The notes below the pieces were generated by a model. The model did no database searches. It saw only the letters and a list, made by a program, of their open reading frames with translations, and was not told the DNA's origin. Positions 22,113 to 44,377 of a stretch of DNA of 64,000 nucleotides are shown piece after piece. Position 1 is the first letter of the stretch; each line of letters starts with the position of its first letter. Origin of the DNA: Arenicellales bacterium (lineage in GTDB: Bacteria > Pseudomonadota > Gammaproteobacteria > Arenicellales > Poriferihabitantaceae); the NCBI GenBank assembly GCA_963422685.1, contig OY730442.1:2695847-2759846 (forward strand), given 5' to 3'. The position numbers were made by a program, and so were the translations under genes.

Positions 22113-22153
22113 AATATAGTCTATTGACTAGGGTATGTACTTTATGGTATATA
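22113..22153 (+). promoter_or_regulatory. Putative sigma70-type promoter with an overlapping palindromic box (box 1) upstream of the tagged ABC/hydantoinase operon
   Basis: AATATAGTCTATTGACTAGG (22113..22132) contains the palindrome ATAGtCTAT and -35 TTGACT (22124..22129). An 18-nt spacer follows, then TATATA (22148..22153). A near-identical copy lies at 44306..44346 on the minus strand. Confidence 0.5.
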
Positions 22154-22270
22154 AACTCCTTCCTGTGAGAGGGGTATCCGTTGCAGTTCATTTCAATTTG
22201 GCCGGACGGAGTACTTTTCATACCACATTAGGATTACTACTAATTGAACATCCTACGTAAGGAGAATATT

Positions 22271-23446
22271 ATGACGACGAGAGAAACGTTTCGGCTGATT
22301 TTGTTTTTTACATTCTCGCTTGGTTTGTCCACTACGGCCTTTTCAGAGGGTCTCGATGAAATTCCTGCTGACACCCGCGCCAGGGTCTACAATCCTGACT
22401 TGATGGACCCGGCCCAGCCACTCGAAGCCAGCATCTACCGAAACTGGAAAACCGACCGCAAGCCGCCCTGGACCATTGGTTATGCAAGTACCTATGCGGG
22501 TAATACCTGGCGCAAGGGGGCGATGGCCAGGCTGCTGAGCGAAGTATTGCCCAAGTGGCAGGCGCTTGGCCTGGTTGATGACATTATCGTTACCCAGTCT
22601 AATCTGAAAGACTCGCTACAAATCCAGCAAATGAGACAATTGGTTGATCAGGGTGTGGACGCCATTATCATCTGCTGTTCAAACCCGACTGCGTTGAACC
22701 AGACAATCAAATACGCTTACGAAAAAGGGGTTCCAACATTTTCATTTACCGGTTACGTCACCTCGCCATACGCGATTAATTCGTCGGTGAATTACCACCA
22801 GGCCGGTTATGAAATCGGTCGATGGATGGCTGAAGAAATTGGCGAAAAAGGCAATGTGCTGGTTATCGAAGGCATCCCCGGGGCATCTGCATCGGATTCC
22901 CAGAATGCTGGCGTGCTGGATGGTCTGGCGCAGTCTCCTGATATAAAACTGGTCGGAAATATCGCACATATGTGGACATCACAAGTCGGTCAGGCTGAGG
23001 TTCAGAAGTGGCTGGCGACTCACCCGCAGCAGTTGGATGGCATCGCGGTACAATCATCTGGTGAGACGGGTGTGTTGCAGGCATTATTACAATCGGGCCG
23101 GGATATTCCGCCCATCTCCATTGGCGGCGAACTGGGCGCTTTGTGTTACTGGCGTAACAATCCGGATTACATCAGTGCCGCGATTCAGACCTGGCCTCCG
23201 GGGGATGATATTGAACTTGGCTGGAACATCATGATGCGCACCATGCAGGGCCAGGGGCCGAAGATTCAATCTATTCTGGTTCCCACTGTCAAGTCCAGTT
23301 TCGACGACATCAAGGCATTGCTTGATGAGAACTGTGACCGCAATTCAACCGATTGGCTGCATGTTGGCATTGATGTCTGGGGCGGAACGAATTACCTGGA
23401 TCAATTTTTTATGAATCCTGCGGACCCGGCAGATTACAAACCTTAA
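22271..23446 (+). CDS. CUT2-type (sugar-like) ABC transporter periplasmic binding protein, PBP1 fold
   Basis: AAGGAG RBS at 22259..22264, and signal peptide MTTRETFRLILFFTFSLGLSTTAFSEG. The body shows the Peripla_BP pattern (...VDAIIICCSNPTAL..., ...GNVLVIEGIPGASASD...). The ORF-track start at 22244 is less likely. Confidence 0.8.
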   Translation: MTTRETFRLILFFTFSLGLSTTAFSEGLDEIPADTRARVYNPDLMDPAQPLEASIYRNWKTDRKPPWTIGYASTYAGNTWRKGAMARLLSEVLPKWQALGLVDDIIVTQSNLKDSLQIQQMRQLVDQGVDAIIICCSNPTALNQTIKYAYEKGVPTFSFTGYVTSPYAINSSVNYHQAGYEIGRWMAEEIGEKGNVLVIEGIPGASASDSQNAGVLDGLAQSPDIKLVGNIAHMWTSQVGQAEVQKWLATHPQQLDGIAVQSSGETGVLQALLQSGRDIPPISIGGELGALCYWRNNPDYISAAIQTWPPGDDIELGWNIMMRTMQGQGPKIQSILVPTVKSSFDDIKALLDENCDRNSTDWLHVGIDVWGGTNYLDQFFMNPADPADYKP

Positions 23447-23481
23447 GATTTAGATAGCGTGAATAAATCAGTGCTGGAGTA

Positions 23482-25314
23482 ATGAATAGCGGAAACGGTG
23501 TAGTATTAAAGGGGCACGATGAAAGCATCTTCGGCGAACCGCCGGCGGTGCTTTCTTCGTTTGCGGGGGAGCTCTATGTCAAGGACGTACACAAGACGTT
23601 TGGCGTGACCAAAGCGCTGAATGGTTGTTCGTTCAGTGCAAATTTTGGAGAAATTCACGCCATTGTCGGCGGCAACGGCTGCGGCAAGAGTACGCTGGCC
23701 AAAGTGCTTTCCGGTGTCCTGCCGATGGACTCAGGCAAACTTTCAATTTTGGGTCATCATCCCACTTCACCCTCCGAAGCCCGCAATACAGGCATTGCAA
23801 CGGTATTTCAGGAAATCATGATTGCTGATCAAGCCACTATCGTGGATAACCTGTTTATCGGCGCTGACGGCTTCTGGACCAGGGCCCTATCGGCCAGAGA
23901 AAAGCGGGACAAAGCGCAGGTATTGATGAAGGAATTGACAGGCGGGGAGATGGACTTGCTCAGGCCAGCGGGCGATTTACCGCTGAGCATCAAAGCATGG
24001 ATTACCATTGGCCGCGCATTGTTGTGCGAGCCGAAGGTTTTAATCCTGGATGAATCATCAGCCGCGCTTGATTTCGATTCCACCGAACGTTTATTTACCA
24101 AAATGCGTGCACTGCGCGGTCAGGGCGTTGCAATCATCATTGTCACCCACCGCATAGCGGAATTAATCAGAATCAGCGACCGGGCCACCGTCATGCGTGA
24201 CGGGCGCGATGTCGGCGTTCTGGAAAAAAGTGAGATCACCGAACCAAACCTGTTGAGTCTGATGACTGGCAGGAATGACGCTACCGAAACCTCTGCGGAG
24301 CACGCGCACAGGACAGCGAGTCGAGAAGTGGTGCTGAAAACCAGCCGCTTAAAAGTGTGGCCCGAAAGCGACCCGATTGATTTTGCGATACTGAAAGGCG
24401 AAATCGTCGGCATTACCGGTCTAGATGGTCATGGTCAGGACGATTTTGTGCGCATTCTGGCCGGGATTGCACAGGCAAGCGAAGGATACCCCGAGATTAG
24501 GGCGGATGGCTCCAATGACTACGTTGCAATAAGAAATCTTGAACAGGCAAAAGACCACGGCATTGCATTCGTGTCCGGTGATCGAAAGCGTGAAGGCATT
24601 CTGCCCAACCTGAGCATATTCGAGAATTTATTGATTCCGTTGTACCGCAGCAATTCACGGCTGCCTGGGGTCAGGTTTATCGACTGGCAAGGGCTGTCAG
24701 ACGTGTTCGATTGGGAAGTGGGGCGGCTGTCGATTAAAACCGGCGCCCAATCCAATCTCATCACATCATTAAGCGGCGGCAATCAACAAAAAGTAATCAT
24801 CGGCCGTTCCTTTGCGTTACATCCGAAAATACTGATATTAAACGACCCGGCCCGTGGCATTGATGTGGACACCAAGCGCGACCTGTACAGGCACTTGCGC
24901 GAGTTTGCCAGCGAAGGGAATTCCGTGGTTTACATGTCCAGCGAACTGGAAGAATTTATCGGCTTTTGCTCCCGGGTTGTGGTGTTTCGCCACGGCAGTA
25001 TTTTTAAAACCTTTGTGGATGCGGATGTAGAGCCGGTTGGTATTTTAGAAGGCATGTTCGGCAGGGCCGGCGGTACGCAGCCATACACTGGCAGCAATCC
25101 GTCTGCCACCCGCAAAGACAGCGATAAGGGCAATAGCGCACAGCCGGCCACATTCCACTCTCCTTGCCGACAGAACGCGAATACCATCGATTCGCCTAAA
25201 CCACAACCTCTGACCGGCGATGACGTCTCCCATATCAGGATAGTGGATTTCGACCATGCTCCCGAACCGCTGACAACTGACCGCGGCAAGATGAAAATCT
25301 CTTACTTTGATTAA
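23482..25314 (+). CDS. CUT2-type ABC ATPase (two fused NBDs) with an 83-aa C-terminal linker plus conserved tail
   Basis: NBD1: GGNGCGKST, LILDESSAALD, IVTHR. NBD2: LSGGNQQKV, LILNDPARGIDV. The canonical fold ends near ...ILEGMFG (about nt 25062). A low-complexity linker follows, then LTGDDVSHIRIVDFDHAPEPLTTDRGKMKISYFD. Confidence 0.85.
   Translation: MNSGNGVVLKGHDESIFGEPPAVLSSFAGELYVKDVHKTFGVTKALNGCSFSANFGEIHAIVGGNGCGKSTLAKVLSGVLPMDSGKLSILGHHPTSPSEARNTGIATVFQEIMIADQATIVDNLFIGADGFWTRALSAREKRDKAQVLMKELTGGEMDLLRPAGDLPLSIKAWITIGRALLCEPKVLILDESSAALDFDSTERLFTKMRALRGQGVAIIIVTHRIAELIRISDRATVMRDGRDVGVLEKSEITEPNLLSLMTGRNDATETSAEHAHRTASREVVLKTSRLKVWPESDPIDFAILKGEIVGITGLDGHGQDDFVRILAGIAQASEGYPEIRADGSNDYVAIRNLEQAKDHGIAFVSGDRKREGILPNLSIFENLLIPLYRSNSRLPGVRFIDWQGLSDVFDWEVGRLSIKTGAQSNLITSLSGGNQQKVIIGRSFALHPKILILNDPARGIDVDTKRDLYRHLREFASEGNSVVYMSSELEEFIGFCSRVVVFRHGSIFKTFVDADVEPVGILEGMFGRAGGTQPYTGSNPSATRKDSDKGNSAQPATFHSPCRQNANTIDSPKPQPLTGDDVSHIRIVDFDHAPEPLTTDRGKMKISYFD
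25210..25311 (+). other. Shared C-terminal tail, copy 1 (on the ABC ATPase)
   Basis: LTGDDVSHIRIVDFDHAPEPLTTDRGKMKISYFD* aligns with the tails at 25842..25958 and 29989..30087. Confidence 0.8.
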
Positions 25315-25331
25315 CAGGCATTGAATAACAA

Positions 25332-25961
25332 ATGGCATCGAAAACAAATCAAAAAGCACCGGCGGATGGTCAGAACTTCACCGACCGCGATACAGTGCAT
25401 TTTGAAACGCTCATGAATTCGTTTGATGTCAATACCGGTGTGCATGCTGAACGCCAGGATGAAAACAAGGAATCACCACGAATGGCTGTCCCGGACGAAT
25501 TTCCGTATACCGGGAGCGATATCCTTGAGTTTCAAAAGTTGATGGCTTCCAGTAACGCACCGGGGAATATGCGCAATACCGGTCCACTGTCTAGTGGTAA
25601 AGTTTCAAATAACACCAGTTATACCGAGGATGACAACCATTTTTTCGATGCGTTAGGGTCATTCGACTGGAGAGCGGGCCCAAACGCCGGGACAACGAGC
25701 TCCGCCAATCCGCCAAAACGGCAGGCGCCAACACCCGACACCGTCAAGTATTCCCGGCAAGACCTGGAAATATTTGCCAGGTTAATGCCCGGCGCGGCAG
25801 GCAGCAGGGAGTACGCCACCAGTAAGCCCGATGCGGCGCCGATACATATTGATAGAGACGTTGGCCATATCAGAATTGTTGATTATGACAAGCAGCGGCT
25901 GGCCGATTCGAAGCGCAAAAATCGTCCGCATATCGACATGAAAATTCATTATTTCGACTAA
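25332..25961 (+). CDS. Low-complexity repeat protein with the shared C-terminal tail (candidate scaffold)
   Basis: 209 aa with no recognisable enzymatic domain. It has four in-register [FY][TS]xxDxxxFxxL[MG] motifs and ends in the same tail as its neighbours. In-frame conservation of the tail argues that it is a real CDS despite a weak RBS. Confidence 0.7.
   Translation: MASKTNQKAPADGQNFTDRDTVHFETLMNSFDVNTGVHAERQDENKESPRMAVPDEFPYTGSDILEFQKLMASSNAPGNMRNTGPLSSGKVSNNTSYTEDDNHFFDALGSFDWRAGPNAGTTSSANPPKRQAPTPDTVKYSRQDLEIFARLMPGAAGSREYATSKPDAAPIHIDRDVGHIRIVDYDKQRLADSKRKNRPHIDMKIHYFD
25377..25787 (+). repeat. Four protein-level short-motif repeats inside ORF 25332..25961
   Basis: FTDRDTVHFETLM (25377..25415), YTGSDILEFQKLM (25506..25544), YTEDDNHFFDALG (25620..25658) and YSRQDLEIFARLM (25749..25787). 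Spacing is 43, 38 and 43 aa. Confidence 0.8.
25842..25958 (+). other. Shared C-terminal tail, copy 2 (on the repeat protein)
   Basis: IHIDRDVGHIRIVDYDKQRLADSKRKNRPHIDMKIHYFD*. Confidence 0.8.
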
Positions 25962-25966
25962 CTCCC

Positions 25967-28063
25967 ATGCAGAAATCAACCCTGGGCACACAATACCGAC
26001 TAGGCATTGATGCGGGAGGCACCTTTACCGACTTTGTGCTTGCCGACCAGATGGCTGGCACGGTTAACATTTACAAAGCGTTGTCCACACCCGGCAATCC
26101 GACCGAAGCGATCCGGGACGGGTTGCAACTTATCTCGGAAGATTTGGGTGTCACAGCAAAAGATGTCATTTCACAATGCGATTTATGTATCAACGGCACC
26201 ACAGTTGGGCTCAACGCATTAATTCAGCACAAAGGGGCAAAGGTCGGCCTGATTACCACCGCAGGCCATGAGGATTCCATCGAAATACGGCTGGGTCACA
26301 AAGAGGACGGCTATCGATACGACCCTGAGTATCCCCCGGCGGTGATGTTGGTGCCGCGATACTTGCGGTGCGGTGTGCGCGAACGGGTTGTTTCCAACGG
26401 CAGGATCAAAACCGGGATGCAGGAGGAGGACGTCCGCGACGCTTGCCGAATGTTTCAGGAGGAGGGCGTTGAGGCGGTGGCGATTTCATTCATCTGGTCT
26501 GTGCTGAACCCGGCCCATGAAATCCGCGCGGCAGAAATCGTGCGTGAAATGCTGCCGGATGTGATCCTCACCGTGGGTAGCGAGCTCTACCCGCAAATAC
26601 GCGAATACACGCGAACCTCCACTGCCATCACCAATGCTTATCTTGCGCCGATTATTAAAACCTATGTCAATTCAATAGACAACTATTTCAATGAGCTCGG
26701 CGCGATCAATCCGGTTCGTTATTTTCAGTCCAACGGCGGCCTGGCCATTGGCCAGGCAATGACCGACCGGTCCGTATACGCAATCAATTCCGGGCCGGCC
26801 TCTGCCCCTCAGGCGGCCCTTGCGATATGTGCGCCTTTTGGTCACCGGAATGCCATCACCGTAGACATGGGTGGAACATCGTTTGATATTACCCTGGCCC
26901 GGGACGGTGTTACCAACCTCAACAAGAATATCGATTTTCTGCGTTACCGCATCGGCGTGCCGATGATTCAGGTAGAAACCCTGGGGGCAGGCGGCGGTTC
27001 AATCGGTTGGATCGATGAAATGGGGTTGTTACAAATGGGGCCGCAAAGCGCGGGATCAGATCCCGGTCCGGCCTGCTATGACCGCGGCGGCACCGAGCCC
27101 ACGGTGTCAGATGCAAACCTGGTTCTGGGTTATTTGAATCCGGCTGGTCTGGTCGGCGGCCGTCTGCCATTGAACTACGACAAATCCTGTCAGGTGATTG
27201 AAGAAAAAATTGCCCGTCCATTGAATATTTCAGTGGAAAAGGCCGCTTACGGTATGTTTACCATCGTCAATAACAACATGGTCAATGGCATTCGCCGGGT
27301 TTCCGTGGAGCGTGGATATGATCCGCGGGATTTCGTGCTGGTTGCGGCGGGCGGCGCCACCGGCGCGCATATAACCGCATTGGCAACGGAAATGGGTATC
27401 GATACTGTGATCGCGTCCAAACTGAGTTCTGGCCTTTGTGCATACGGACAGATTATTGCGGACGTCAAGTATAATTATATGGCGACCATTCCAGTGCGAC
27501 TGGAAGGCAATGAGACCTATGTCCGCATTAATGCGCTGTATGATGATATAGAAACCAGAGGCATCGATCATTTAAAGTCCGACGGTTTTGCCGAATCGGA
27601 CATCGATATCAAACGCAGCATGGAAATGCGTTATGTCGGGCAGATTCACGAATGTACCGTAGACATCGAATCCTTCGAGATCAACGCGCAGACAATTGAG
27701 CAGATTAAAAATGCGTTTCATGATCGCCACGAACAGTTATTCACCTATTCCGAGCGGCATAACCCGGTCGAACTGGTGAATATCGAAAGCACGCTCTATG
27801 GGCGGGTGGCGCGACCCAATCCGGCGGAACTTGACAGCGGCCCGGCAGTGGAGAATGCGCTAAGCGGACAGCGTGATTTGATTTTTTCCGATGATGCCAG
27901 ACCCGTCCGCGTGCCGGTTTATGACGGCGCAAAAATTGGCGCCGGCAGTCAGCTTACCGGCCCTGCGGTGGTTGAAGAAGAAACCGCGACCTACGTTATT
28001 CAGCCGGACTGGCAAATTGCGCTGCACAAAAGCGCATCATACGTGATTACCCGGGTGCGTTAA
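25967..28063 (+). CDS. Hydantoinase A / oxoprolinase family, ATP-binding subunit (HyuA-like)
   Basis: 698 aa: YRLGIDAGGTFTDFVL (ASKHA-fold phosphate-1), ...TVDMGGTSFDI..., ...LGAGGGSIGW... Typical of the Hydant_A_N and Hydantoinase_A domains. Confidence 0.88.
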   Translation: MQKSTLGTQYRLGIDAGGTFTDFVLADQMAGTVNIYKALSTPGNPTEAIRDGLQLISEDLGVTAKDVISQCDLCINGTTVGLNALIQHKGAKVGLITTAGHEDSIEIRLGHKEDGYRYDPEYPPAVMLVPRYLRCGVRERVVSNGRIKTGMQEEDVRDACRMFQEEGVEAVAISFIWSVLNPAHEIRAAEIVREMLPDVILTVGSELYPQIREYTRTSTAITNAYLAPIIKTYVNSIDNYFNELGAINPVRYFQSNGGLAIGQAMTDRSVYAINSGPASAPQAALAICAPFGHRNAITVDMGGTSFDITLARDGVTNLNKNIDFLRYRIGVPMIQVETLGAGGGSIGWIDEMGLLQMGPQSAGSDPGPACYDRGGTEPTVSDANLVLGYLNPAGLVGGRLPLNYDKSCQVIEEKIARPLNISVEKAAYGMFTIVNNNMVNGIRRVSVERGYDPRDFVLVAAGGATGAHITALATEMGIDTVIASKLSSGLCAYGQIIADVKYNYMATIPVRLEGNETYVRINALYDDIETRGIDHLKSDGFAESDIDIKRSMEMRYVGQIHECTVDIESFEINAQTIEQIKNAFHDRHEQLFTYSERHNPVELVNIESTLYGRVARPNPAELDSGPAVENALSGQRDLIFSDDARPVRVPVYDGAKIGAGSQLTGPAVVEEETATYVIQPDWQIALHKSASYVITRVR

Positions 28064-28065
28064 CC

Positions 28066-30090
28066 ATGCCGGAAGTCGATCCAATCACACTATCCGTGGT
28101 TCGCGGGATTCTGGAAACCACCCAGCGGGAAATGACCCTGGCGCTTGAAAAAACCGGGCGATCCAGCGTATTTAACCTGGCCCATGACTATTCCACGGCC
28201 ATGTTCAACGCCACTCCTGAAATGATCATGCAGGGCCAGGACATACCCATTCACCTGGGTTCGTTGATGCCTGCGATGAAAGCGGTGGCCGGTTATTTTG
28301 GCGACGACCTTCATCCAGGTGATTTGCTGCTGCACAACGACCCGGAATACAAGGGCAGCCATATTCTCGATATGTGCATGTACAAGCCGGTTTTTTATAA
28401 AGGCGAACACATATTCTGGACGGTATGTAAAGGACACCTGACCGATATTGGCGGGCCGGTACCGGCCGGTTACAACCCGGATGCCAGAGAGATTTACGCC
28501 GAAGGGCTGCGTGTGCCCCCCATCAAACTATGGGACAAGGGTAAGCCCCGGGAAGACATACTGAATATGCTGCTGACCAATATGCGGGCGCGGCGCGACC
28601 AGGAGGGCGATTTCAATGCCCTGATTGGCGCTTGTCAGGTTGGCGAACGCAATCTGCTTAATATGCTGGATAAATACGGTATTGAGCAAGTCCGGCTGTG
28701 CATTGATGAATTGCTGTCCATGGCGGACCGTCACATGCGCTCACTGATCAGGCAGGTGCCCGACGGCAGTTTCTCGGGCACCGCGATTCTGGAAGATGCC
28801 GGCCATGGTTTCGGCGACATAGAAATCACCGCGAATCTGACCATTACCGGCGACACCTGCCGGATTGATATCACCAGTCCACCCCAGGTGCCCTATTTCA
28901 TCAACTCCTATGAAGGCAATTCCTATTCCGGTGTGTATCTGGGAGTGATGATGTTTGCCCAGCTTCCGCCGCCATATAATGAAGGTCTGTACCGGTGCGT
29001 CACCGTAAACATGGGGGAAAAGGGGACATTGTGCAATGCGGCCGAACCGGCGCCCCACGTTAATTGTACAACTACCCCGATGGAAACCCTGACCGATGCA
29101 GTGCGTCTGGCCTTTGAGCAGGCCGCGCCAGACAAAGTGAGTGCATCATGGGGGCATACCAATGGCTGCAACATTGCCGGATGGGATTCACGAACCAATG
29201 AAGAATATGTCACTATGGTGCTGGCAACACTTATTTCTGGTGCCGGGGCGACTCCGCAACAGGACGGCTGGCATGCCTGTGGGCCGCAGTCCTGTTTCGG
29301 CGCGCTGACTTCGGGTGATGTTGAATTGCTTGAGCATTCTTATCCGATCATTATTCATCGTTACAATCTGATGACCGATTCCGGCGGTGCGGGAAAATTT
29401 CGCGGAGGGTCGGGAACCTGTTGGGAGGTTGAGCCGATGGATGAACCGATGACCTTCGTGATGTTTGGCGAAGGCCGTCGTTTACCGGCAATGGGTGCGG
29501 CGAACGCGCGCTCAACCATGATCGAGCCCAAAGTCGGTCGGGTCGAATTTACCCGGAACGGTAATGTCGAAATCGTTCGCAAAAACGTCATTGCCACCAT
29601 TCAGCCAGGCGAAACCGCAACCAATAAAAATCCGGGCGGCGGCGGCTATGGCGACCCGTTTGACAGGCCCATCGACAAAGTCATCCAGGATGTAAAAAAC
29701 CGGCTGGTTTCAATCGAAGGCGCTCGGGAAGATTATGGGGTTGTGATCAAGAATGCCGAAACCCTTGAGGCGGATAACCCGGCCACCACCGCGCTGCGCA
29801 GCAATCAATTGCGTCACAAAATGACTGCGCCTGCTGCCATTTCTGGCGCTGACCAGGCCGTTAAATTAGCTCCCGCACCGGTTTCATCGGTGAATATTGA
29901 TCGCCCTGGCGCGGGCGATGTGGCAACAAACCGCAAACCCGGTGACAGGGAGTCGTACAAACAGGGGGGCAACGCCGCTCCAAAACCGTTGACTGGCGCG
30001 GACGTGGGCTTTATTCGAATTGTTGATTTTGATAAACAGGAATCATCCGGCAGGAAAAATAAAAAGAATATGAAAATCCGCTATTTCTGA
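28066..30090 (+). CDS. Hydantoinase B / oxoprolinase family subunit (HyuB-like) with an approximately 88-aa C-terminal linker plus conserved tail
   Basis: DPITLSVVRGILETTQREM..., ...SGGAGKFRGGSG..., ...GGGGYGDPFDRP...REDYGVV is a complete Hydantoinase_B domain. It is followed by a Pro/Ala/Gly-rich linker and LTGADVGFIRIVDFDKQESSGRKNKKNMKIRYF. Confidence 0.88.
   Translation: MPEVDPITLSVVRGILETTQREMTLALEKTGRSSVFNLAHDYSTAMFNATPEMIMQGQDIPIHLGSLMPAMKAVAGYFGDDLHPGDLLLHNDPEYKGSHILDMCMYKPVFYKGEHIFWTVCKGHLTDIGGPVPAGYNPDAREIYAEGLRVPPIKLWDKGKPREDILNMLLTNMRARRDQEGDFNALIGACQVGERNLLNMLDKYGIEQVRLCIDELLSMADRHMRSLIRQVPDGSFSGTAILEDAGHGFGDIEITANLTITGDTCRIDITSPPQVPYFINSYEGNSYSGVYLGVMMFAQLPPPYNEGLYRCVTVNMGEKGTLCNAAEPAPHVNCTTTPMETLTDAVRLAFEQAAPDKVSASWGHTNGCNIAGWDSRTNEEYVTMVLATLISGAGATPQQDGWHACGPQSCFGALTSGDVELLEHSYPIIIHRYNLMTDSGGAGKFRGGSGTCWEVEPMDEPMTFVMFGEGRRLPAMGAANARSTMIEPKVGRVEFTRNGNVEIVRKNVIATIQPGETATNKNPGGGGYGDPFDRPIDKVIQDVKNRLVSIEGAREDYGVVIKNAETLEADNPATTALRSNQLRHKMTAPAAISGADQAVKLAPAPVSSVNIDRPGAGDVATNRKPGDRESYKQGGNAAPKPLTGADVGFIRIVDFDKQESSGRKNKKNMKIRYF
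29989..30087 (+). other. Shared C-terminal tail, copy 3 (on hydantoinase B)
   Basis: LTGADVGFIRIVDFDKQESSGRKNKKNMKIRYF*. Confidence 0.8.
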
Positions 30091-30099
30091 TTTGCAGAC

Positions 30100-32364: not shown

Positions 32365-32376
32365 GCAAAAAATTAA

Positions 32377-34284: not shown

Positions 34285-34323
34285 TGTTTCGCCTCATTTG
34301 TTCAAATATCTGCGCGGATCGGT

Positions 34324-34692: not shown

Positions 34693-34731
34693 ATTTACTA
34701 TCGCCTGATCATTATAATTGCGGCTGGGTGA

Positions 34732-37089: not shown

Positions 37090-37117
37090 GGTTTTTTCCC
37101 CGAATAATCGCCTTGAA

Positions 37118-39058
37118 TTAATATTTTGAGCCACTGGCAACTCTTTCGATTTCCCGTTCTGGAACAGTGGACATCTCCATTTTGCAGGCCAGATACCAAA
37201 TCATGCCTACGCCCAGCGCCCACCAGATAATCTGCCATGCCCAGATCGATGGCATACCCAGATTCCAGGCCGGATATCCTGCATCGGGCTCACCGAAAAG
37301 TACATTGCCAAGCACCGCACCGGGACCGATCGCAAAAAACATCCACACCAGTACGATGACTGCGGCGACGGATTTTGACCAGCGTCTGTGTCTCGTCAAT
37401 GAACCGTATTCTTTAAGAAAATCGTGCACCTGGCTGCGTCGCGGCCGGTGCACATCGTTGCGCCCCATAGCCGAAACGATGAGGCAGACCAGGATATTCA
37501 AAAACATACCCCATGCGGCAGAATGTATGGTCCAGGGCCAACGCCCCCAGGGCAGCGAATCCGCTGCGAGCTTCTGCCCCAGAGGTTCGGTCATGACCAC
37601 AGCAATCAGACCGGCAATCAAACCCAGGGTGGCAGCCTGTCGCGTGATCCAGGGAAACCATGTCACAGCAAGCAGCGACGGCCACAGTTGAAACCCAAAG
37701 GCAATGGCAAGACTGCCAAGCAGTATGGTAGCTTCCATTGAATAGGTGGCGATCAGCATGGCGGCCAGAAATACCAGCCCGGTACACAGCCGACCCACCC
37801 GCTTTTGTTTTTCATGATTCGCGTCAGGCTGGATATAGCGTTTATAAATATCCCGGGTCAAAATACTGCCAGTGGCGGCCATAAATGCACCGGCCGTTGC
37901 CTGTAACGCCGCAATGGCACAGACTGCAAACACCCCTATTAGCCAGGGCTGTTTGTCACCGATCAGTTTTATGTAGTGCACTGCCAGGGAGTTTCTTTCA
38001 TGGCCAGCCAGTACGGGTAGTATCTGCGCGGTGGCGATGTCGGCTTCATTGACTTGGGCATTGGCGCCCAGCAAATGTGCGCTAACACCCATCAAGGTGG
38101 AAAATACAAGCATGATGATCCCGGCGCAAAACGCGGCCCCCCAAACTTGATGGATGACGAATCCGCGTGGCGACTGGCTTGCAAAGCCCCACATGGAAAT
38201 AGCGGGCGAAGCCTGAATTCCCATTATCGACATCATAAAAGTCAGGCACATGATGGCTGTCCAGGGGCCGCCAGAAGGCGATTCGACACCGATTCCGGCG
38301 GTCCATTGAATTACCCCCGGGATGGCAAAGTATCCCGGGAAATTTCCACCGCCTGAACCATTCGTATTGCCCCACAAGCCCGGCAAGTTCTGTGCGATGC
38401 GTGCCAGACCTCTGTTCAGAGAGTCGAATCCCCCGGCCGTTTCCAGGGCAAATGTGCCGAGTACAACCACGCCAAAGGCAAACAATACGCACTGTACCAC
38501 AGCGATTTTCGCCACAGCCTGCATACCCCCAGTGGTACAGTACAGCAATACGAAGCCCGATAATACCCACATGGCAGCGTCACGGGATATGGTTTGATCG
38601 GTCAACTCACCGATCAAAAACCCGGATGCACCGAATAGCATGGCGGCAAATGGCACACCGAACAACAGCGCGATACCGACGGATACGATACGCAGCGCAT
38701 TGCCGCCAAAATAGTCTGCAAACATTTCGCCGCACGTCATATATCCAAATCGTCGCCCCAGCATCCACTGGCGTTTGAGGAGTACCACACCCGCTAACGC
38801 CACGGCTATGCCGTAAAAGGATGTATTAACGAATTGAAAGCCATCACGAAATACTAAACCGGGGTGCCCCATAAACGCCCAGCCTGCCAAGGTCACCGCA
38901 GTGATGGCAAGAGAAAATACCCAGGGCGAAAGCTGTCGGCCGGCAAGAAAAAAATCGCTGGCGGTGTGTGCCCGACGCAGCGCACGGATACCCCAGAAGA
39001 AACAATATGCCCAGTAAAGCAGCAAAAACAGCAGCAGCCAGATGGTGCTGTGGGTCAT
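37118..39058 (-). CDS. Sodium:solute symporter (SSS) family transporter
   Basis: 646 aa, about 13-14 hydrophobic segments, with an SSF-type N-terminus (LLLYWAYCFFWGIRALRRAHTASDFFLAGRQLSPW). It ends 28 nt before the amidase start. Confidence 0.8.
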   Translation of the reverse strand: MTHSTIWLLLFLLLYWAYCFFWGIRALRRAHTASDFFLAGRQLSPWVFSLAITAVTLAGWAFMGHPGLVFRDGFQFVNTSFYGIAVALAGVVLLKRQWMLGRRFGYMTCGEMFADYFGGNALRIVSVGIALLFGVPFAAMLFGASGFLIGELTDQTISRDAAMWVLSGFVLLYCTTGGMQAVAKIAVVQCVLFAFGVVVLGTFALETAGGFDSLNRGLARIAQNLPGLWGNTNGSGGGNFPGYFAIPGVIQWTAGIGVESPSGGPWTAIMCLTFMMSIMGIQASPAISMWGFASQSPRGFVIHQVWGAAFCAGIIMLVFSTLMGVSAHLLGANAQVNEADIATAQILPVLAGHERNSLAVHYIKLIGDKQPWLIGVFAVCAIAALQATAGAFMAATGSILTRDIYKRYIQPDANHEKQKRVGRLCTGLVFLAAMLIATYSMEATILLGSLAIAFGFQLWPSLLAVTWFPWITRQAATLGLIAGLIAVVMTEPLGQKLAADSLPWGRWPWTIHSAAWGMFLNILVCLIVSAMGRNDVHRPRRSQVHDFLKEYGSLTRHRRWSKSVAAVIVLVWMFFAIGPGAVLGNVLFGEPDAGYPAWNLGMPSIWAWQIIWWALGVGMIWYLACKMEMSTVPEREIERVASGSKY

Positions 39059-39121
39059 ACTGGACTCCCATTGATCGAGTTGGCCATGTGATCAATACGC
39101 TTTGTGCACCGCGACAGCCCG

Positions 39122-39883
39122 CTAGACAATTTGTTTTGGGGCCTGGGGGACCCGGGCCCAGAATTTCGGGTCATGCCCATAGAATATTCGCGCCCCGGCT
39201 TTTTCCAGCTTGCGCAGCAGCAACAGCGAATCAAGCATTTGGCTGCGATTATGAACCAGATGCGGCAGGTGCAGATTGGTCAGAGTTTCTTTTAAGTAAC
39301 AGGCATCAGCGGATAATATGATGTCACCAGAATCCAGGCGAACCTTCAGTGACTGGTGACCCGGAGTGTGGCCGAAGGTCGGTAGAGTGACTATGCGCCC
39401 ATCTCCGAACAAATCGTGTTCGCCGTTGACTTTCTGCACCAGATGACCATGATCATAATCCGCAGGAGCGTAGCCATTGGCTTTAATACATTCCGGGGTC
39501 TGCCCTGCTTCCCATTCGCGTTGTTGAATAATTATTTTGGCGTTTGGAATCAATTCATTACCGCCCGTATGATCAAAGTGCAGGTGTGAGTTAACCAGGT
39601 ATTCGATTTTATTCGCTTCGATATCCAGTTGTTGCAGACGTGACTTTATGTCCTCGCCCTGACGAAATTCAACACTAAAAAGATCCGCCAGAAATCCTAT
39701 CCTGCTGCGTGGATCATGCTGGCAGTGGGGATGCAGCCCGGTATCGAACAACACCTGACCGCGCGGGTGATCAACCAGATAAGCCGGCACCGGGAACCGA
39801 ATTCTGCCGGCTTTGCCGGCAAGCATCATGTTCAGCCCGGAGGTCAGCCAGCCGCAGGTCATGGCGTATACTTTTATGGACAC
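39122..39883 (-). CDS. Metallo-beta-lactamase fold hydrolase (AHL-lactonase-like subgroup)
   Basis: 253 aa with NSHLHFDHTGGN (HxHxDH), followed by the ...GHTPGH... and ...GHD... metal ligands. Confidence 0.75.
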   Translation of the reverse strand: MSIKVYAMTCGWLTSGLNMMLAGKAGRIRFPVPAYLVDHPRGQVLFDTGLHPHCQHDPRSRIGFLADLFSVEFRQGEDIKSRLQQLDIEANKIEYLVNSHLHFDHTGGNELIPNAKIIIQQREWEAGQTPECIKANGYAPADYDHGHLVQKVNGEHDLFGDGRIVTLPTFGHTPGHQSLKVRLDSGDIILSADACYLKETLTNLHLPHLVHNRSQMLDSLLLLRKLEKAGARIFYGHDPKFWARVPQAPKQIV

Positions 39884-39938
39884 GCAACGCCCTGATTCTT
39901 GCTGTTACTATCGGTCTGCAAACGCAGTAACACCGTGG

Positions 39939-40793
39939 TTATCCGTCGGTGCGTTCACGAATGATACGCAGCGCCTCTTTAAGATAGACCCGAAACACAT
40001 CGTAGTTTTCGCTCATCGGAAAATGGCCAATATCGTCCATCTCGATATAGACTCCGCCCCGTATCCGGCGTGCGGTATTTTCGGTGGCCTCAGGGGGAGT
40101 GAGGTAATCGTAGGTGCCGGTCATCATGATTACCGGGCATTTTCGACCCTGGATGTTTTGCAGTTCATCGCGCAGGTCGTGGTCAACGGAATAAAAGTAC
40201 AGATCTCCTTTGAACGCTTCTGACCCTTGGGTGTAATAGTGCCAGGTCAGCCAGCGATCCATTTCCGGCGATTGCGGTGCCATTAAATCCCACACACCGC
40301 TGCCACAAACCTGGGCCGCATTGGCGTGCGGATGGCGCCACCAATCCAGATAAAATCCTGGCGCATAGTCAGCCGCTTCTACCGGGATCACTGCCTTGAA
40401 TCGATCTGGCCGCCGCAGTGCAAGTTGTAATGCGACATTTCCGCCAAATGATGAGCCCATAAAAATCGGCTCCTTCAGCTCCAGCGCGTCACATAATCTG
40501 AGTATGAAATTACAATAGTGATCGGCGGTAAGTTTATATTCCTGTTTCCACCACTCGGTGTTATGGGGCGGGTCTGATTTTCCATGTCTGGGCAAGTCGT
40601 AGGCAATGACGTTGTAATGTTTTGTGATTTCTGCGTCTTCAAGCAGACCACGCCACTGGTGATTATGGCATCCGGCAGTGTGTTGACAGATGAGCGGCTG
40701 TCCCCGGCCATTATGTAGATAGAACACTTTGTACTCCTGACCATCAACATCAATTGTTACGTAGCGGCCGGTAACGGGGGAATGTTTTACCAT
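39939..40793 (-). CDS. Alpha/beta-fold hydrolase
   Basis: 284 aa with the nucleophile elbow MGSSFGG and a C-terminal ...DDIGHFP... histidine. Confidence 0.75.
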   Translation of the reverse strand: MVKHSPVTGRYVTIDVDGQEYKVFYLHNGRGQPLICQHTAGCHNHQWRGLLEDAEITKHYNVIAYDLPRHGKSDPPHNTEWWKQEYKLTADHYCNFILRLCDALELKEPIFMGSSFGGNVALQLALRRPDRFKAVIPVEAADYAPGFYLDWWRHPHANAAQVCGSGVWDLMAPQSPEMDRWLTWHYYTQGSEAFKGDLYFYSVDHDLRDELQNIQGRKCPVIMMTGTYDYLTPPEATENTARRIRGGVYIEMDDIGHFPMSENYDVFRVYLKEALRIIRERTDG

Positions 40794-40845
40794 TTTTTTG
40801 TTCCTGGAAACGCTGTTTCAGTAGGGTTGTCTGGCGAGGTCTGCA

Positions 40846-41235
40846 TCACACGGGAACGCCGCTTTTGCGCAATAGTTCAAATTGCACGGTAAAATTACGG
40901 AGATTCTGCATAAGTACCAGATGATTACCCTCAATCTTCAGGTCCTTGCGAAAACTTGCCGACCAGATACCGTGATACATTGGTTTCGGCACAGGTTGGG
41001 AAAACTCCCGCCAGGTTGCCGCTGAGGCCCGCAGTGCGAAATCATACGCATCCAGCGGCCCGGGGTCCGTGTTAATATTTTTTATCTTGCCGTCGTGCAT
41101 TTCTATAATGAACCTGCAATCGGTCATGTCAAACATAAACGAGCAGGTGTAGTACTTCGCCATTGCGCCGATGGTTTCATCGCTATTTGTCAGGTTTGCG
41201 TACTTATCTGCCCAGGTTTTAGGGTCTTGCTTCAT
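40846..41235 (-). CDS. SCP2 sterol-carrier-like small protein (tentative)
   Basis: 129 aa. The pattern ...FMFDMTDCRFIIEMHDGKI...ALRASAATWREF...LKIEGNHLVLMQNL resembles SCP2 domains. Assigned from pattern only. Confidence 0.4.
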   Translation of the reverse strand: MKQDPKTWADKYANLTNSDETIGAMAKYYTCSFMFDMTDCRFIIEMHDGKIKNINTDPGPLDAYDFALRASAATWREFSQPVPKPMYHGIWSASFRKDLKIEGNHLVLMQNLRNFTVQFELLRKSGVPV

Positions 41236-41353
41236 AATTCAATATTCTTCAATAACGTGACTGACCGCTGGCTTGTGTGCGATCTGGCACCATTGGCAAG
41301 CCCTGGCCATCCCGGGAACATGTGTCAGCCTGAAAATCATTATTAACTGTTGT

Positions 41354-43399
41354 TTAACTATTCTGCGGCTTCCCGGCGGACTTTGTCGTATTCGACCGGG
41401 TTGATGTACTCTGATCGGTGATTTCCTTGTCATAGCCACCCAGAATATTGCTGATGTTACTGATCTCTCCTGGTGACATGCCGATTTCCTGCAACAGATT
41501 ATCAACAAATGGCATTTGTGCACGGTAACGCAGCGCCGAGTTCACAACGTTATCTGCCAGACTGCTGCCCGGCGTATCATCGCCTTTTCTTGGTCTATCC
41601 CCGCTGCCGCCAGCGCCCTGGGGATGTCCATCGCTGAATCCGGGCATCCCGTTGACTTCCAGAATCTTGATAGCGTCAATGTTCTGCATTGGTTTCACCG
41701 CTTCCCGGATGATGGATTCAAGATTGCTCGCCAGTTGCATACGCAATGCACTGCGGCGACTGGCGTCGCTGCGCATATTCTCTGCCTCATTAAGCTGTCG
41801 CTTGCCAGCCGCCTCTACTTCATAACGCAGCCTGGTCGCCAACGAAGCAAACTTTTCGGCCTGCTCCCGGTCTGCGGACGCTGTTTTTTCGGCTTTGGCC
41901 AGCGTAGTCAGTTGAATCGCTTCGCGCTCCACCTGCTGGGCGGCATGAATCAGCTCGACGGCTTTTTTACGTTCTGCAATTTCCAGTTCACGCACTGAAG
42001 CAACTTTCTCCTCAGCGTCTGCGACTTGAGCGTGCGCCTGTTGTTCTTCGGTATTTGCCTGCAACACTTCCAGCGATTTTTTGGTAACCGCCAGATTGCG
42101 ATCCTGCTCTTCTATCTGCAATATCTTGAGTTTTTCGATTTCCTGGGCTTTGGTCTTTCGCTCATTTTCGATTCGAATCGCGTCAAGATTCCGCTGTTGC
42201 ACTATTTGCGCTTTTTTCACTTCTTCCCGGGCGCGGATCTGTGCTTGTTCGCCTTCCTGAAAACGCACTGCTTCCTGGGTCACCACATCCGCTTTCTGCT
42301 TTGCTCTGCGCACCGCAATTTCTTCCTGCTGCTGTAAGTGTACAAATTCATTTTCTTTTGCGATTTCGAGCGATCGGATGTCCGCTTCCAGGTTCTTCTG
42401 TTGAATCTGGATTTCGGTTTCTTTTTCGATCTGGTTGCGTAATCTGCGCCGTTCTTCGATTTCCAGGGTTAGTTTGTGATCGCGCAATGAACGTTCAACA
42501 TCAACAGCCTGTTCATAGCAGATGCGTGCTTTTTCAATTTCTTCATCGGCTTTTATCTGCGCTTCTTCGGCCTTGCGCTCCTGGTTGGCGCGCTCCACAG
42601 ACATTTCGGTGCGTTCTTTGGCGCGCTGTTTTTCTATATCTCTTTGTTGGGCAAGACGAGAAAATTCACTTTCTTTTTCAATGCCCAGCGCTCTTTTTTC
42701 TGCTTCCAGGTTTTTGTTGCGAATCTGAATCCGGGTGTCCTGTTCAATGTCGTTGCGTTTTTTCTTGCGCAGTTCAATTTGCTCGGTCAATTGGGTGAGA
42801 CCTTCTGCATCAAACGCATTGGATGGGTTGAATACTTCCAGGGCGGCCTGATCCAGGCCGGTCAGAGAAACCGCTTCAAGCTCAAGCCCGGTTTGACCTA
42901 ATGAATCTTCTACCAGCGCTTTGACCGACTTGACATAGTCGCCCCGATGTTCCTGCATTTCGTCCATGCTCATCTGCGCCGCAACAATCCCCAGGGCATC
43001 GACAAACCGGCCTTCCACCAATTCACGCAGGCTTTCCGGTTCCAGCGTACGTTTTCCAAGCGATCGCGCCGCTGTGGATACTGCTTCCCGGGTCGGCGTA
43101 ACGCGCACATAAAACTCCGCCACCAGTTCAACGCGCATTCGGTTTCTGGTGATCAGGGATTTGTCGCCGCCGCGCCGGACTTCAATGCGTAATGTGCGCA
43201 TGCCCACGGTGGTTATATTATGGATAATCGGCAATACGAAGGCGCCACCGCTAATTACAACCTTTTCACCACCGAGGCCACTGCGCACAAACGAGACTTC
43301 TTTGGAAGAGCGACGGTATAACCAGTGTAATAGATAAACTACGATAGCAATCGCAAGCCCAATCAGGATGATTACCGCAATAATGTCTGCACCGGTCAT
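41354..43399 (-). CDS. Flotillin / SPFH (band 7) family membrane-scaffold protein, YqiK-like
   Basis: N-terminal TM (IIAVIILIGLAIAIVVYLL), an SPFH domain (...VVISGGAFVLPIIHNITTVGMRTLRIEV...), and a long E/K/Q/R coiled coil with a tandem ~100-aa duplication. AGGAG RBS. Confidence 0.85.
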   Translation of the reverse strand: MTGADIIAVIILIGLAIAIVVYLLHWLYRRSSKEVSFVRSGLGGEKVVISGGAFVLPIIHNITTVGMRTLRIEVRRGGDKSLITRNRMRVELVAEFYVRVTPTREAVSTAARSLGKRTLEPESLRELVEGRFVDALGIVAAQMSMDEMQEHRGDYVKSVKALVEDSLGQTGLELEAVSLTGLDQAALEVFNPSNAFDAEGLTQLTEQIELRKKKRNDIEQDTRIQIRNKNLEAEKRALGIEKESEFSRLAQQRDIEKQRAKERTEMSVERANQERKAEEAQIKADEEIEKARICYEQAVDVERSLRDHKLTLEIEERRRLRNQIEKETEIQIQQKNLEADIRSLEIAKENEFVHLQQQEEIAVRRAKQKADVVTQEAVRFQEGEQAQIRAREEVKKAQIVQQRNLDAIRIENERKTKAQEIEKLKILQIEEQDRNLAVTKKSLEVLQANTEEQQAHAQVADAEEKVASVRELEIAERKKAVELIHAAQQVEREAIQLTTLAKAEKTASADREQAEKFASLATRLRYEVEAAGKRQLNEAENMRSDASRRSALRMQLASNLESIIREAVKPMQNIDAIKILEVNGMPGFSDGHPQGAGGSGDRPRKGDDTPGSSLADNVVNSALRYRAQMPFVDNLLQEIGMSPGEISNISNILGGYDKEITDQSTSTRSNTTKSAGKPQNS

Positions 43400-43460
43400 A
43401 ATTTCATGCTCCTAACTTGTTCTGTCGGCGACCATTTTTCACTGAAAATAAATAATAATG

Positions 43461-44159
43461 TCATGAATTCACTCGCGAATCGTTTATTGCAGCCCGATAG
43501 ATCACGAAACCGAAGATAATTTTGTTCAAAAAATCCGCGAGGTTGTAGATGATATTCAAACTATTGGTATCCACACCACCGCCCAGGTGTTCGATAAAAT
43601 AGCCGAGCGGATAAATTGCCCAGCCGATGGTGACAATCAGCCGTAAGCCGTTAAACGCCAGATGGGTGGCGTCGTTTCCGCTGTGCGCATTAACCCGGCC
43701 AGCTTCGCCCATATACAACTCACCCAGAATATACAGCCAGCCAACCAGCCCAATCAGAAAACCAAGGGTGGCGCTCATATAACCCGCCGCGCCGAGAAAT
43801 TCGCCAATGACCATCACCAGTGAACCTATCAGCAGTCGCCAGAATAACGCTGTGGAAGCCCTGGTTACCGCAGTGAGCACCACATAAAACAGAACCACCT
43901 GCATTGGATGGGTAAGCACCCAGTCAATGTATCGCAAAATTATCGGGGCGGAACCTGTGTCCATCCACATCTCTTTGGTGTAGTGATAATGGATCGCGGA
44001 GACCAGCATGACTACACCCAGCAGTGTCATTGTTGTATGCCATCTACCGGTCACCTTATTTCTTTCCAACAGGAAAAAAATGGTCGCGCCGATCAGGGCT
44101 ATGGACAACAGCCAGAATGAACCGCCGACAACATCAGTGGGTAACAGCGTCTCGTTCAT
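43461..44159 (-). CDS. Microbial (type I) rhodopsin, proteorhodopsin-like, with Leu at the proton-donor position
   Basis: 232 aa, colinear with proteorhodopsin as I recall it: SFWLL..., IHYHY (His75 equivalent), RYIDWVLTHPMQVVLFY (Asp97 and Thr101 equivalents present, Gln at tuning site 105, Leu at 108), and IYNLADFLNKIIFG (Asp227 and retinal Lys231 equivalents). Confidence 0.88.
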   Translation of the reverse strand: MNETLLPTDVVGGSFWLLSIALIGATIFFLLERNKVTGRWHTTMTLLGVVMLVSAIHYHYTKEMWMDTGSAPIILRYIDWVLTHPMQVVLFYVVLTAVTRASTALFWRLLIGSLVMVIGEFLGAAGYMSATLGFLIGLVGWLYILGELYMGEAGRVNAHSGNDATHLAFNGLRLIVTIGWAIYPLGYFIEHLGGGVDTNSLNIIYNLADFLNKIIFGFVIYRAAINDSRVNS

Positions 44160-44305
44160 GAAATATCAAATGTCTTGTTTTATTTTTATAACTGATTTCA
44201 TCGGGATAGCCGGTGGATAAACGATTGATCCCTTTCCGCCGGGGCGGAATTTGCCAGATCTGCAATCAGGTTAATGCCACCCGCATCTGGCTTAATGACT
44301 GGCAA

Positions 44306-44346
44306 TATATATCATTAGTTATAGATCCTGGTCAATAGTCTATATT
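44306..44346 (-). promoter_or_regulatory. Putative sigma70-type promoter with a palindromic box (box 2) upstream of the rhodopsin-led block
   Basis: The minus strand reads AATATAGACTATTGACCAGG-15 nt-TATATA. This is identical at 18 of 20 positions to box 1, with the same spacing, and sits about 145 nt upstream of the rhodopsin ATG. Confidence 0.5.
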
Positions 44347-44377
44347 CTTAATACAAGCATATCCTAAAGTTATAATT

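Follow-up and report, generated by a model that had tools for sequence, protein, structure and literature searches.

Two similar promoter-like boxes as putative copies of one promoter-operator module heading the convergent halves of a flotillin-associated rhodopsin gene cluster in an Arenicellales bacterium

We analyzed a 64-kb stretch of DNA from an Arenicellales bacterium (contig OY730442.1, positions 2,695,847 to 2,759,846), here called the window, in which two similar boxes stand at the heads of the two convergent halves of a flotillin-associated rhodopsin (FAR) gene cluster. One box precedes a block of ABC transporter (ABC1) and caprolactamase-type genes that begins with the gene of a substrate-binding protein, SBP1, and the other precedes a block that begins with the genes of the rhodopsin (FArhodopsin) and a flotillin. 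The evidence presented below supports the view that both boxes are real, that they head both blocks, and that they lie in promoter regions and are under selection. As part of the whole model, we have moderate confidence that they are paralogous copies of a ∼75-bp promoter-operator module. We also lean toward reading them as co-regulated sigma70-type promoters under one transcription factor, for which the response regulator encoded in the cluster is the candidate.

The window was scanned on both strands over its 64 kb for AATATAGNCTATTGACNAGG, allowing up to three mismatches, and the result was compared with 100 shuffled sequences. Matches were found only at 22113-22132 on the plus strand and at 44346-44327 on the minus strand, two against 0.03 expected, and none of the 100 shuffles reached two. 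Within the window, the octamer CTATTGAC is likewise found only in these two boxes and in none of the other promoters. The coordinates and sequences of the boxes proposed in the original prediction were borne out, and alignment confirmed its account of an upstream element identical at 18 of 20 positions, an equal gap of 15 nucleotides (nt), and an identical TATATA. The count of 32 identical positions also stood, over an aligned length of 42 positions here, where 41 had been given. The predicted extent of 41 nt captured a real similarity and was too short. Alignment of both upstream regions extended the similarity to ∼75 nt (22083-22157 versus 44376-44304) and brought in an upstream word that had not been listed, TATAACTTTATGG at 22084 and TATAACTTTAGG at 44374.

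The consensus of the module has four parts. A distal word, TATAACTTTAkG, lies ∼37 nt upstream of the core, or at roughly −75 from the predicted start; the core is ATAGnCTAT fused to a TTGAC −35 element; a proximal word, (TATAAC/GTAC)TwwATGrTATATA, covers the spacer of 18 nt; and its last bases, TGnTATATA, form an extended −10-like end. In module 1, on the plus strand, the distal word O1 (TATAACTTTATGGTGTATAT) occupies 22084..22103, ∼37 nt upstream of the core. The core box AATATAGTCTATTGACTAGG follows at 22113..22132, with the palindrome ATAGTCTAT at 22116-22124 and a −35-like TTGACT at 22124-22129, and the proximal word O2 (GTATGTACTTTATGGTATATA) lies over the 18-nt spacer at 22133..22153, with TG at 22145-22146 and TATATA at 22148-22153. 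In module 2, on the minus strand, the distal word (TATAACTTTAGGATATGC, 44357..44374) lies 51 nt upstream of the TATAACT in O2, the core box AATATAGACTATTGACCAGG (44327..44346) holds the palindrome ATAGACTAT at 44343-44335 and a −35-like TTGACC at 44335-44330, and the proximal word (CTATAACTAATGATATATA, 44306..44324) has TG at 44314-44313 and TATATA at 44311-44306. The distance from distal to proximal word is 51 bp in both copies. In box 1, the 10-mer ACTTTATGGT of O1 recurs exactly in O2, 51 nt downstream, with an identity of 14/18 at that spacing; in box 2, TATAACT is found at 44374 and again at 44323.

Several features of the module resemble a sigma70 promoter. The −35 hexamers TTGACT and TTGACC each match TTGACA at 5/6 positions, and TTGAC is invariant in all eight box-type promoters from the window and its relatives. 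A TG stands one base upstream of the −10-like hexamer (TGGTATATA and TGATATATA), invariantly 16 nt after TTGAC, and the pattern TTGAC-N16-TGnYA is kept in 8/8 of these promoters. TTGAC(T/C) with an 18-nt spacer and TGnTATATA is plausible as a housekeeping promoter with an extended −10. The columns that have no known sigma-factor role, namely ATAG.CTA, the A that follows the −35, and those of the distal word, are conserved as much as the −35 itself, and this indicates a sequence-specific factor. Other motifs were considered and rejected. A 14-bp palindrome, TrGwC-TATT-GACyA, is perfect in box 1 and in the related promoter L014, but by hand analysis its variable positions do not covary, only three of the eight promoters being consistent. 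A RutR half-site (TTGACCA) is present without its second half-site, and the spacer of 18 nt is not the 19 to 20 nt of a MerR-type promoter. None of the consensus sequences for integration host factor (IHF), sigma54, sigma32, and sigma28 fits the module. No Rfam family was found in the whole window other than one tRNA. For both predicted leaders and the junction at which the blocks converge, the z-scores of folding were −0.6, −0.6, and +0.5, with no riboswitch, attenuator, or clear bidirectional terminator.

Conservation in related genomes was suggested in the original prediction as a check, and the box was indeed found at orthologous rhodopsin and SBP1 promoters. The rhodopsin promoters of L002, L003, and L010, whose rhodopsin proteins are 88 to 91% identical, carry the box with AATATAGACTATTGAC invariant, and the first 20 nt of the module 2 core are identical at 19 to 20 of 20 positions in these orthologous promoters. 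For this class, box identity to the window is 34 to 39 of 42 positions (81 to 93%), and the first 20 nt agree at 18 to 20 positions across all pairs, while 4-fold sites of the adjacent gene are only 36 to 55% identical to the window. The rhodopsin-promoter boxes of the window and these three relatives are identical to one another at 32 to 39 of 42 positions. The SBP1 promoters of L012, L013, and L014 carry a more degenerate box that includes RGnCTATTGAC, with 27 to 31 of 42 positions identical to the window, 13 to 17 of the first 20 nt identical across all pairs, and 28 to 46% identity at 4-fold sites of the adjacent gene. The skeleton common to the two classes is RGnCTATTGAC-N16-TGnYA. The distal word is conserved in five of the eight promoters and recurs in other promoters of the FAR cluster. 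The leaders vary from ∼35 to ∼280 nt and do not align outside the box, which always points at the gene. Since the box is conserved far above 4-fold sites and the rest of the leader does not align, we conclude that the box is under purifying selection. We also observed that box 1 of the window agrees with the rhodopsin-type boxes at 32/42 positions, more than the 27 to 31 at which it agrees with the SBP1 boxes orthologous to it, which could reflect gene conversion between both promoters or a recent copy.

Searches on a larger scale gave few further sites. A strict 18-base pattern matched eight times in 185,579 species genomes. Three of these matches lie in Poriferihabitaceae/Arenicellales records of 1.0 to 2.7 Mb, one match in each and upstream of the rhodopsin gene, and the other five are in unrelated organisms, about the number expected by chance. 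The original prediction had noted that occurrence at many unrelated intergenic sites would mark the box as a generic repeat; with a single copy in each matching related record and two in the window, there is no many-copy pattern, and a dispersed repeat of the kind of repetitive extragenic palindromes or miniature inverted-repeat transposable elements was rejected. A 42-nt weight matrix was run over 194 kb of related DNA, where the shuffle maximum was 3.3 bits. The eight known sites scored 39 to 62 bits, and only two others exceeded 12 bits. Both are in intergenic DNA of FAR clusters: one, in L022, precedes an ABC ATPase gene, and the other stands between the regulator and SBP2 genes of L020. 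A 16-mer matrix of the core only gave 15 extra matches above 9 bits, which equals the shuffle expectation of 6 to 22, and thus gave no evidence of additional sites in the DNA scanned. A metagenome-wide search with the pattern GNCTATTGACYRGGRTNTN8TGNTA gave five matches, all of them unrelated and chance-like.

The arrangement of the cluster differs among relatives. In L020 and L028 (SBP1 79 to 80% identical), the ABC1 genes and the FArhodopsin-flotillin-SSS symporter genes form one co-directional array with short gaps. That array is without the caprolactamase pair and has no box before the rhodopsin gene, and it is adjoined by the genes of the response regulator and of a second, TorT-like substrate-binding protein, SBP2. 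Given this single array, the convergent order of the window, with its second promoter copy, is derived. That both blocks form one co-directional, probably co-transcribed array elsewhere is the strongest argument for co-regulation. The words of the module also follow the cluster. Across 243 kb of related DNA there are seven ATAGNCTAT sites, every one of them in an SBP1, FAR (rhodopsin), or kinase-SBP1 intergenic region, and promoter regions of FAR clusters, that of SBP2 in L028 among them, account for about 10 of 14 matches to TATAACTWW. Overall, neither ACTTTAKG nor TATAACTWW is enriched, and the informative feature is solely that they cluster at FAR-cluster promoters. The SBP2 promoter of L028, a distant relative, holds TATAACTAATGATA, which agrees at each of 14 nt with the proximal word of box 2 in the window. 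We observed in the same promoter (L028 6182-6304, minus strand, toward SBP2) the sequence TATAACTAATGATAGG and a second CTAATGATAG 23 nt downstream, beside the response regulator gene; this would be a third promoter class with the motif.

Also in L028, ATAGnCTAT persists without an adjacent TTGAC. The cluster of L022 is AT-richer, and its divergent region between the regulator and SBP1 genes holds ACATACTTTA three times. The sole independent CTATTGAC box of that locus is followed 40 nt later by ACATACTTTAGGAT, the sole independent exact match there to WACTTTAKGRT. In L026, the FArhodopsin block has moved beside ribosomal protein genes (S6, S18, and L9) and a DUF4372 transposase fragment (L026 9341-10000), and there it lacks the box as well as an upstream ABC2 operon, regulator gene, and kinase gene. 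In that genome, the SBP1 promoter retains CTATTGAC-N16-TGATACATT and not ATAG. Among the best 120 matches, no orthologous regulator was found in L026/L027, a contig of 1.43 Mb.

In the mechanism that we propose, RNA polymerase with the housekeeping sigma factor would start transcription a few nt downstream of TATATA, and the predicted leaders would be ∼110 nt for the ABC1/caprolactamase operon and ∼140 nt for the operon that runs from FArhodopsin and flotillin to the N,N-dimethylformamidase (DMFase) genes. One sequence-specific transcription factor would read the non-sigma words of both modules and thereby co-regulate both operons. The candidate factor is the NarL/LuxR-type response regulator of the cluster. 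It would receive its phosphate from the adjacent hybrid kinase once the TorT-like periplasmic binding protein has bound a ligand, and its site of action would abut or overlap the −35, where the LuxR-family regulator CrbR/ErdR also acts. We infer promoter activity, start site, co-regulation, and the direction of control (activation or repression) from sequence. The single regulon of the original prediction remains the best reading in light of the conservation, the single copy in relatives, and the L020/L028 arrays; its link to light is doubtful.

The assignment of this particular regulator is tentative. The genes of the response regulator, hybrid kinase, and TorT-like protein adjoin the cluster in the window and in L002, L003, L020, L022, and L028, and the regulator-kinase-TorT-like synteny is kept in five of six related genomes with a readable neighbourhood. 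The order of the ABC2 operon, which encodes the TorT-like protein, is syntenic in L002 and L003. The LuxR-type response regulator is the only regulator that travels with the cluster. Its recognition helix, TGTVKMHVSGIFKKL, is invariant (with one K/R change) in the five genomes that have the box or its words together with an orthologous regulator. L020 and L022, whose boxes are degenerate, have a different helix. This pattern is weakly consistent with the assignment.

A number of observations weigh against the proposed model. An invariant helix is weak evidence, because helix-turn-helix domains are generally conserved. The regulator-SBP2 intergenic regions are without the box, their best likeness being CATAGTTTACCGACT at 11/15, which is not significant by the weight matrix, and the window's own genome beyond the 64 kb may hold further sites or another regulator. 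The distal word is absent in L010 and L014, and the distal/proximal repeat is clear only in box 1 of the window and in L002, is weaker in L012, and rests on hand alignment in box 2 of the window. The putative −10 is also imperfect. TATATA, at its 18-nt spacing, has A at position 2 and is without a conserved T at position 6, a position that differs among orthologues (A, C, T, or G; for example TATACC, CATACT, TATTTG, and TAGTGT). A consensus promoter scanner called neither box, because it demands the T at position 6 that TATATA lacks. Moreover, CTAATGATAG is part of the putative extended −10 and occurs twice, 23 nt apart, in the L028 SBP2 promoter, and this doubling of CTAATGrTA means that the supposed −10 part may be a protein site. 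Elements over the −35 and −10 would fit a repressor as well as an activator. The likeness to ErdR, considered below, is incomplete. The right half-site in the window is GAC (core G(A/T/C)C-TATT-GAC, of the same geometry), where the ErdR site has GTC, and it is not an ACTU inverted repeat. The window regulator is no ErdR orthologue, scoring 129 bits against a cut-off of 390; this is its best NCBIfam match, followed by NarL at 111 bits, also under cut-off.

Some of these points suit a repressor-controlled promoter. In such a promoter, a repressor encoded elsewhere, for example of the GntR/HutC, TetR, or ribbon-helix-helix (RHH) type, would bind the core and the proximal word, might loop to the distal word 51 bp away, and would be released by a substrate of the amide/lactam pathway. 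Co-regulation would hold, and the adjacent two-component system would not be the direct regulator. The conserved non-sigma words lie exactly over the −35, the spacer, and the −10, which are classical repressor positions, and the same word stands twice in both modules of the window, 51 bp (∼5 helical turns) apart. A near-consensus −35 (5/6) with a TG extension looks like an activator-independent promoter, and the box is absent from the regulator-SBP2 intergenic regions. In addition, ATATAGAC agrees at 7/8 positions with the HutC-type core, GTMTAKAC. Given the overlap of the words with the −35 and −10, this account is a serious rival, but we consider it unlikely. The 50 open reading frames (ORFs) scanned in the 64-kb window included no repressor gene, and none is conserved beside the SBP1 gene in relatives; the LuxR-type response regulator is the only regulator accompanying the cluster; and the 9-bp palindrome is too short for a typical helix-turn-helix dimer.

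Likeness between the boxes could also arise with no dedicated factor at all, if they were two copies of one strong constitutive promoter that was copied when an ancestral array was split by inversion and was then held by RNA polymerase constraints on the −35, the TG, the −10, and upstream A/T-rich contacts. The derived order of the window relative to the L020/L028 array is in keeping with this, TTGAC, TG, and TA are among the best-conserved columns, and the closeness of box 1 to rhodopsin-type boxes fits copying or gene conversion. We judge it improbable all the same, in that ATAG.CTA and the A after the −35, which have no known sigma70 role, are equally conserved, and L028 keeps ATAGnCTAT apart from any TTGAC. 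The distal word at ∼−75, kept in 5/8 promoters, recurs at other FAR-cluster promoters, and CTATTGAC is in no other promoter of the window. That the boxes are not promoters, and are instead a short dispersed repeat, the end of a mobile element, or a chance match in AT-rich intergenic DNA, is very improbable. Insertion sequence (IS) fragments do occur in the window, and the promoter scanner was silent at both sites. Yet only 0.03 matches are expected by chance, each matching related chromosome or contig has one copy in the same orientation before the same genes, and conservation of the box is far above neutral. Repeat searches detected no inverted or direct repeats at the flanks, nor any additional copy, and there is neither an Rfam match nor a significant leader fold.

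The genes that the modules precede were assigned with Pfam and NCBIfam, which upheld most of the gene content of both blocks given in the original prediction. The ABC1/caprolactamase block (22271..33786, plus strand) encodes SBP1, a double ATPase, a 209-aa protein, CapA-like and CapB-like proteins, and two permeases. The pair that had been called a hydantoinase scores as a caprolactamase, CapA with 1208 bits and CapB with 1103 bits against NCBIfam cut-offs of 1000. The FAR block (33877..44159, minus strand) has nine genes, for the FArhodopsin, flotillin, a 129-aa protein, an alpha/beta hydrolase, a metallo-β-lactamase-fold (MBL) hydrolase, an SSS symporter, the DMFase large subunit, and two DMF_alpha-like small proteins, the DMF_alpha family having been assigned in orthologues of the small proteins. 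Pfam families in the blocks include SSF, DMFA2_C, Abhydrolase, Lactamase_B, and BPD_transp_2. The flotillin ORF (43399..41354, minus strand; Band_7 and Flot) follows the rhodopsin gene on the same strand after a 61-nt gap, and the order is the same in all relatives. The 129-aa protein lies at the sterol-carrier position and had been described as SCP2-like; it matched nothing in Pfam or NCBIfam, which leave that description unconfirmed. The blocks meet tail to tail at 33786/33877, and the gaps between genes are as originally described.

Directly upstream of module 2, on the same strand, lies the ABC2 operon (44378..48264, minus strand), with SBP2 at 47035-48264, an ATPase at 45418-47034, and a permease at 44378-45421 (Pfam). 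SBP2 is TorT-like, with 274.5 bits on NCBIfam NF008185 (cut-off 200) and 211.7 bits on TIGR02955, under its cut-off of 310. Box 2 begins 32 nt past the stop codon of this permease, the distal word only 3 nt past it (44378), and a consensus terminator scan called no terminator between the two. Box 2 would thus be an internal promoter in a longer co-directional array, and not the start of a separate block as had been proposed. The NarL/LuxR-family response regulator gene (48428..49120, plus strand; Response_reg and GerE in Pfam) is divergent from the ABC2 operon, and the hybrid sensor histidine kinase gene (49143..51209, minus strand; HAMP, HisKA, HATPase, and REC in Pfam) follows, its product lying near the NahK/ErcS and TorS families of NCBIfam at scores under their cut-offs. 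Besides these two, no regulator or repressor gene was found among the 50 window ORFs scanned with Pfam. The statement that no regulator gene lies inside the 22 kb of the two blocks is therefore literally correct, but genes for the TorT-like protein, regulator, and kinase stand 4 kb past box 2 and keep their synteny in related genomes.

On the other side, the ∼480-nt gap upstream of box 1 holds no LysR-type or other regulator and no ORF of note. Some 450 nt of it (21629-22083) is gene-free, between a divergent Rieske oxygenase gene (20471-21628, minus strand) and module 1; this stretch is not conserved, and the upstream neighbors in relatives all differ. ABC1 and ABC2 are paralogous. Their ATPase genes share 21 nt that are 100% complementary (24775-24795 versus 45685-45705), and their permease genes share 36 nt at 78% (32935-32970 versus 45293-45328). 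Because module 1 precedes one ABC system and module 2 follows the other, the boxes do not simply belong to a transporter unit that was duplicated. The 209-aa protein (25332-25961, plus strand), whose gene stands between those of the ABC ATPase and the CapA-like protein, matched neither Pfam nor NCBIfam and is kept at the same position in all relatives (198 to 211 aa), including those without the caprolactamase pair. The ORF of the DMFase large subunit begins at a TTG, so that it and the end of the symporter gene have 23 nt in common (37118-37140), and encodes 802 aa, compared with 785 aa in orthologues; the true start probably lies downstream of that TTG. Elsewhere in the window we noted an rve integrase core (2523-2984) and the C terminus of an IS110-family transposase (Transposase_20, 5106-5411), both IS fragments, as well as a type I restriction R subunit gene and a YgjP-like metallopeptidase gene (58231-62282) and a tRNA gene (57544-57631).

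The window rhodopsin (43461-44159, minus strand) has as its best solved relative the flotillin-associated rhodopsin of PDB 9r21 (E = 6e-126, 422 bits, residues 1 to 229). H84 and E120 were shown to prevent retinal binding in the Pseudothioglobus FArhodopsin (bioRxiv 10.1101/2025.04.29.651185; structures PDB 9r21/9r23), and the window FArhodopsin retains both, as well as the Schiff-base lysine position. The retention of H84 and E120 makes it doubtful that this is the light-responsive protein of the original prediction. FArhodopsins are widespread in abundant marine bacteria. They bind no retinal, and a link to light is still part of the hypothesis that has been published for them; the shared module and the sensor system accompanying the cluster point to chemical rather than light control. 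One possible, and still doubtful, reading is that FArhodopsin and flotillin would have no relation to light and would serve as structural components of a membrane-microdomain “metabolon”, induced chemically, that takes up and hydrolyzes amides and lactams. It would bring together the ABC transporter, the ATP-dependent caprolactamase-type lactamase, the DMFase-like amidase, and the symporter as one regulon via the shared module, switched on by the TorT-like/hybrid kinase/LuxR-type system upon sensing a nitrogenous compound derived from the host or seawater. If that were true, the identity of the inducer would reveal the long-sought function of the retinal-free FArhodopsins. The module and the sensor system give an experimental entry to that function through DNA with which to probe for the regulator, a binding protein to screen for ligands, and two promoters to fuse to reporters. 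We also observed that the response regulator is only 65 to 68% identical between genomes whose FArhodopsins are ∼90% identical, which suggests a strong constraint on the rhodopsin or an exchange of the cluster between lineages.

Known systems offer partial parallels to the regulator and its putative site. As in the TorT/TorS/TorR system of E. coli, which senses trimethylamine N-oxide (TMAO), the gene of a TorT-like binding protein adjoins that of a hybrid sensor kinase. The window kinase scores 202 and 132 bits on TorS models, far under the cut-offs of 676 and 982, and the window response regulator is of the GerE/NarL/LuxR type, unlike the OmpR-type TorR. The SBP2 gene, again unlike in the Tor system, is followed by ABC ATPase and permease genes and may also serve transport. 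No tor-box decamers (CTGTTCATAT-like) were found near either module.

A parallel in position exists with CrbR/ErdR, an activator whose short (G/T)AC-N4-GTC site occupies −52 to −36, directly ahead of the −35 (PMC5715377); promoters of the CrbS/CrbR (MxtR/ErdR) ACTU-motif regulon are also treated in a further source (bioRxiv 10.64898/2026.09.07.749794). Both systems pair a LuxR/NarL-family response regulator with a hybrid kinase, and both have a short 3-4-3 element that touches the sigma70 −35 from upstream and is common to several catabolic and transport operons. The P. alloputida ErdR site TAGACGATTGTC and the window sequence TAGACTATTGAC are the same at 10/12 positions, and AATATAGnCTAT of the window ends on the first T of TTGAC and is thus placed like the CrbR/ErdR site, a correspondence that depends on the predicted −35. 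On the opposite strand, GAC-yAGG-GTA (equivalent to TAC-N4-GTC) follows the −35 in five of nine box-type promoters, the window example being at 22126-22135. In contrast to CrbS/MxtR, the window kinase is without an SLC5/STAC domain and has HAMP, HisKA, HATPase, and REC only, and in contrast to CrbR/ErdR promoters, the window module carries distal and proximal words besides. The window shows no enrichment of KACNNNNGTC (29 matches versus 32 expected). The ErdR score, the missing SLC5/STAC domain, the GAC half-site, and this lack of enrichment rule out membership in the CrbR/ErdR regulon.

The cluster itself has a direct precedent. The FAR gene cluster, with its rhodopsin, flotillin, sterol-carrier protein, symporter, DMFase, and hydrolases, is known from Pelagibacterales, HIMB59, and Pseudothioglobus (Haro-Moreno et al., bioRxiv 10.1101/2023.01.04.522823). 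The association of rhodopsin, flotillin, symporter, and DMFase genes highlighted in the original prediction is thus real and had already been published. The window cluster agrees with it in the order of rhodopsin and then flotillin on the same strand, in the presence of the symporter, N,N-dimethylformamidase, alpha/beta hydrolases, and membrane translocators, and in a small protein at the sterol-carrier position. A LuxR-type regulator and a hybrid kinase are carried by the Pseudothioglobus cluster (bioRxiv 10.1101/2023.01.04.522823) and also stand beside that of the window. Whereas the published hosts are free-living plankton, the window host is a sponge-associated member of the Arenicellales (“Ca. 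Poriferihabitaceae”), known through a metagenome-assembled genome of a sponge sequencing project, and its cluster adds the caprolactamase-type CapA/CapB pair inside an ABC transporter operon and the TorT-like binding protein. Two operons with a common operator are ordinary as a genomic phenomenon. The paper on the FAR cluster holds no promoter or operator analysis, both words occurring 0 times (bioRxiv 10.1101/2023.01.04.522823), and the shared cis module is for that reason new information, a new instance of the familiar arrangement in which two operons share a promoter/operator.

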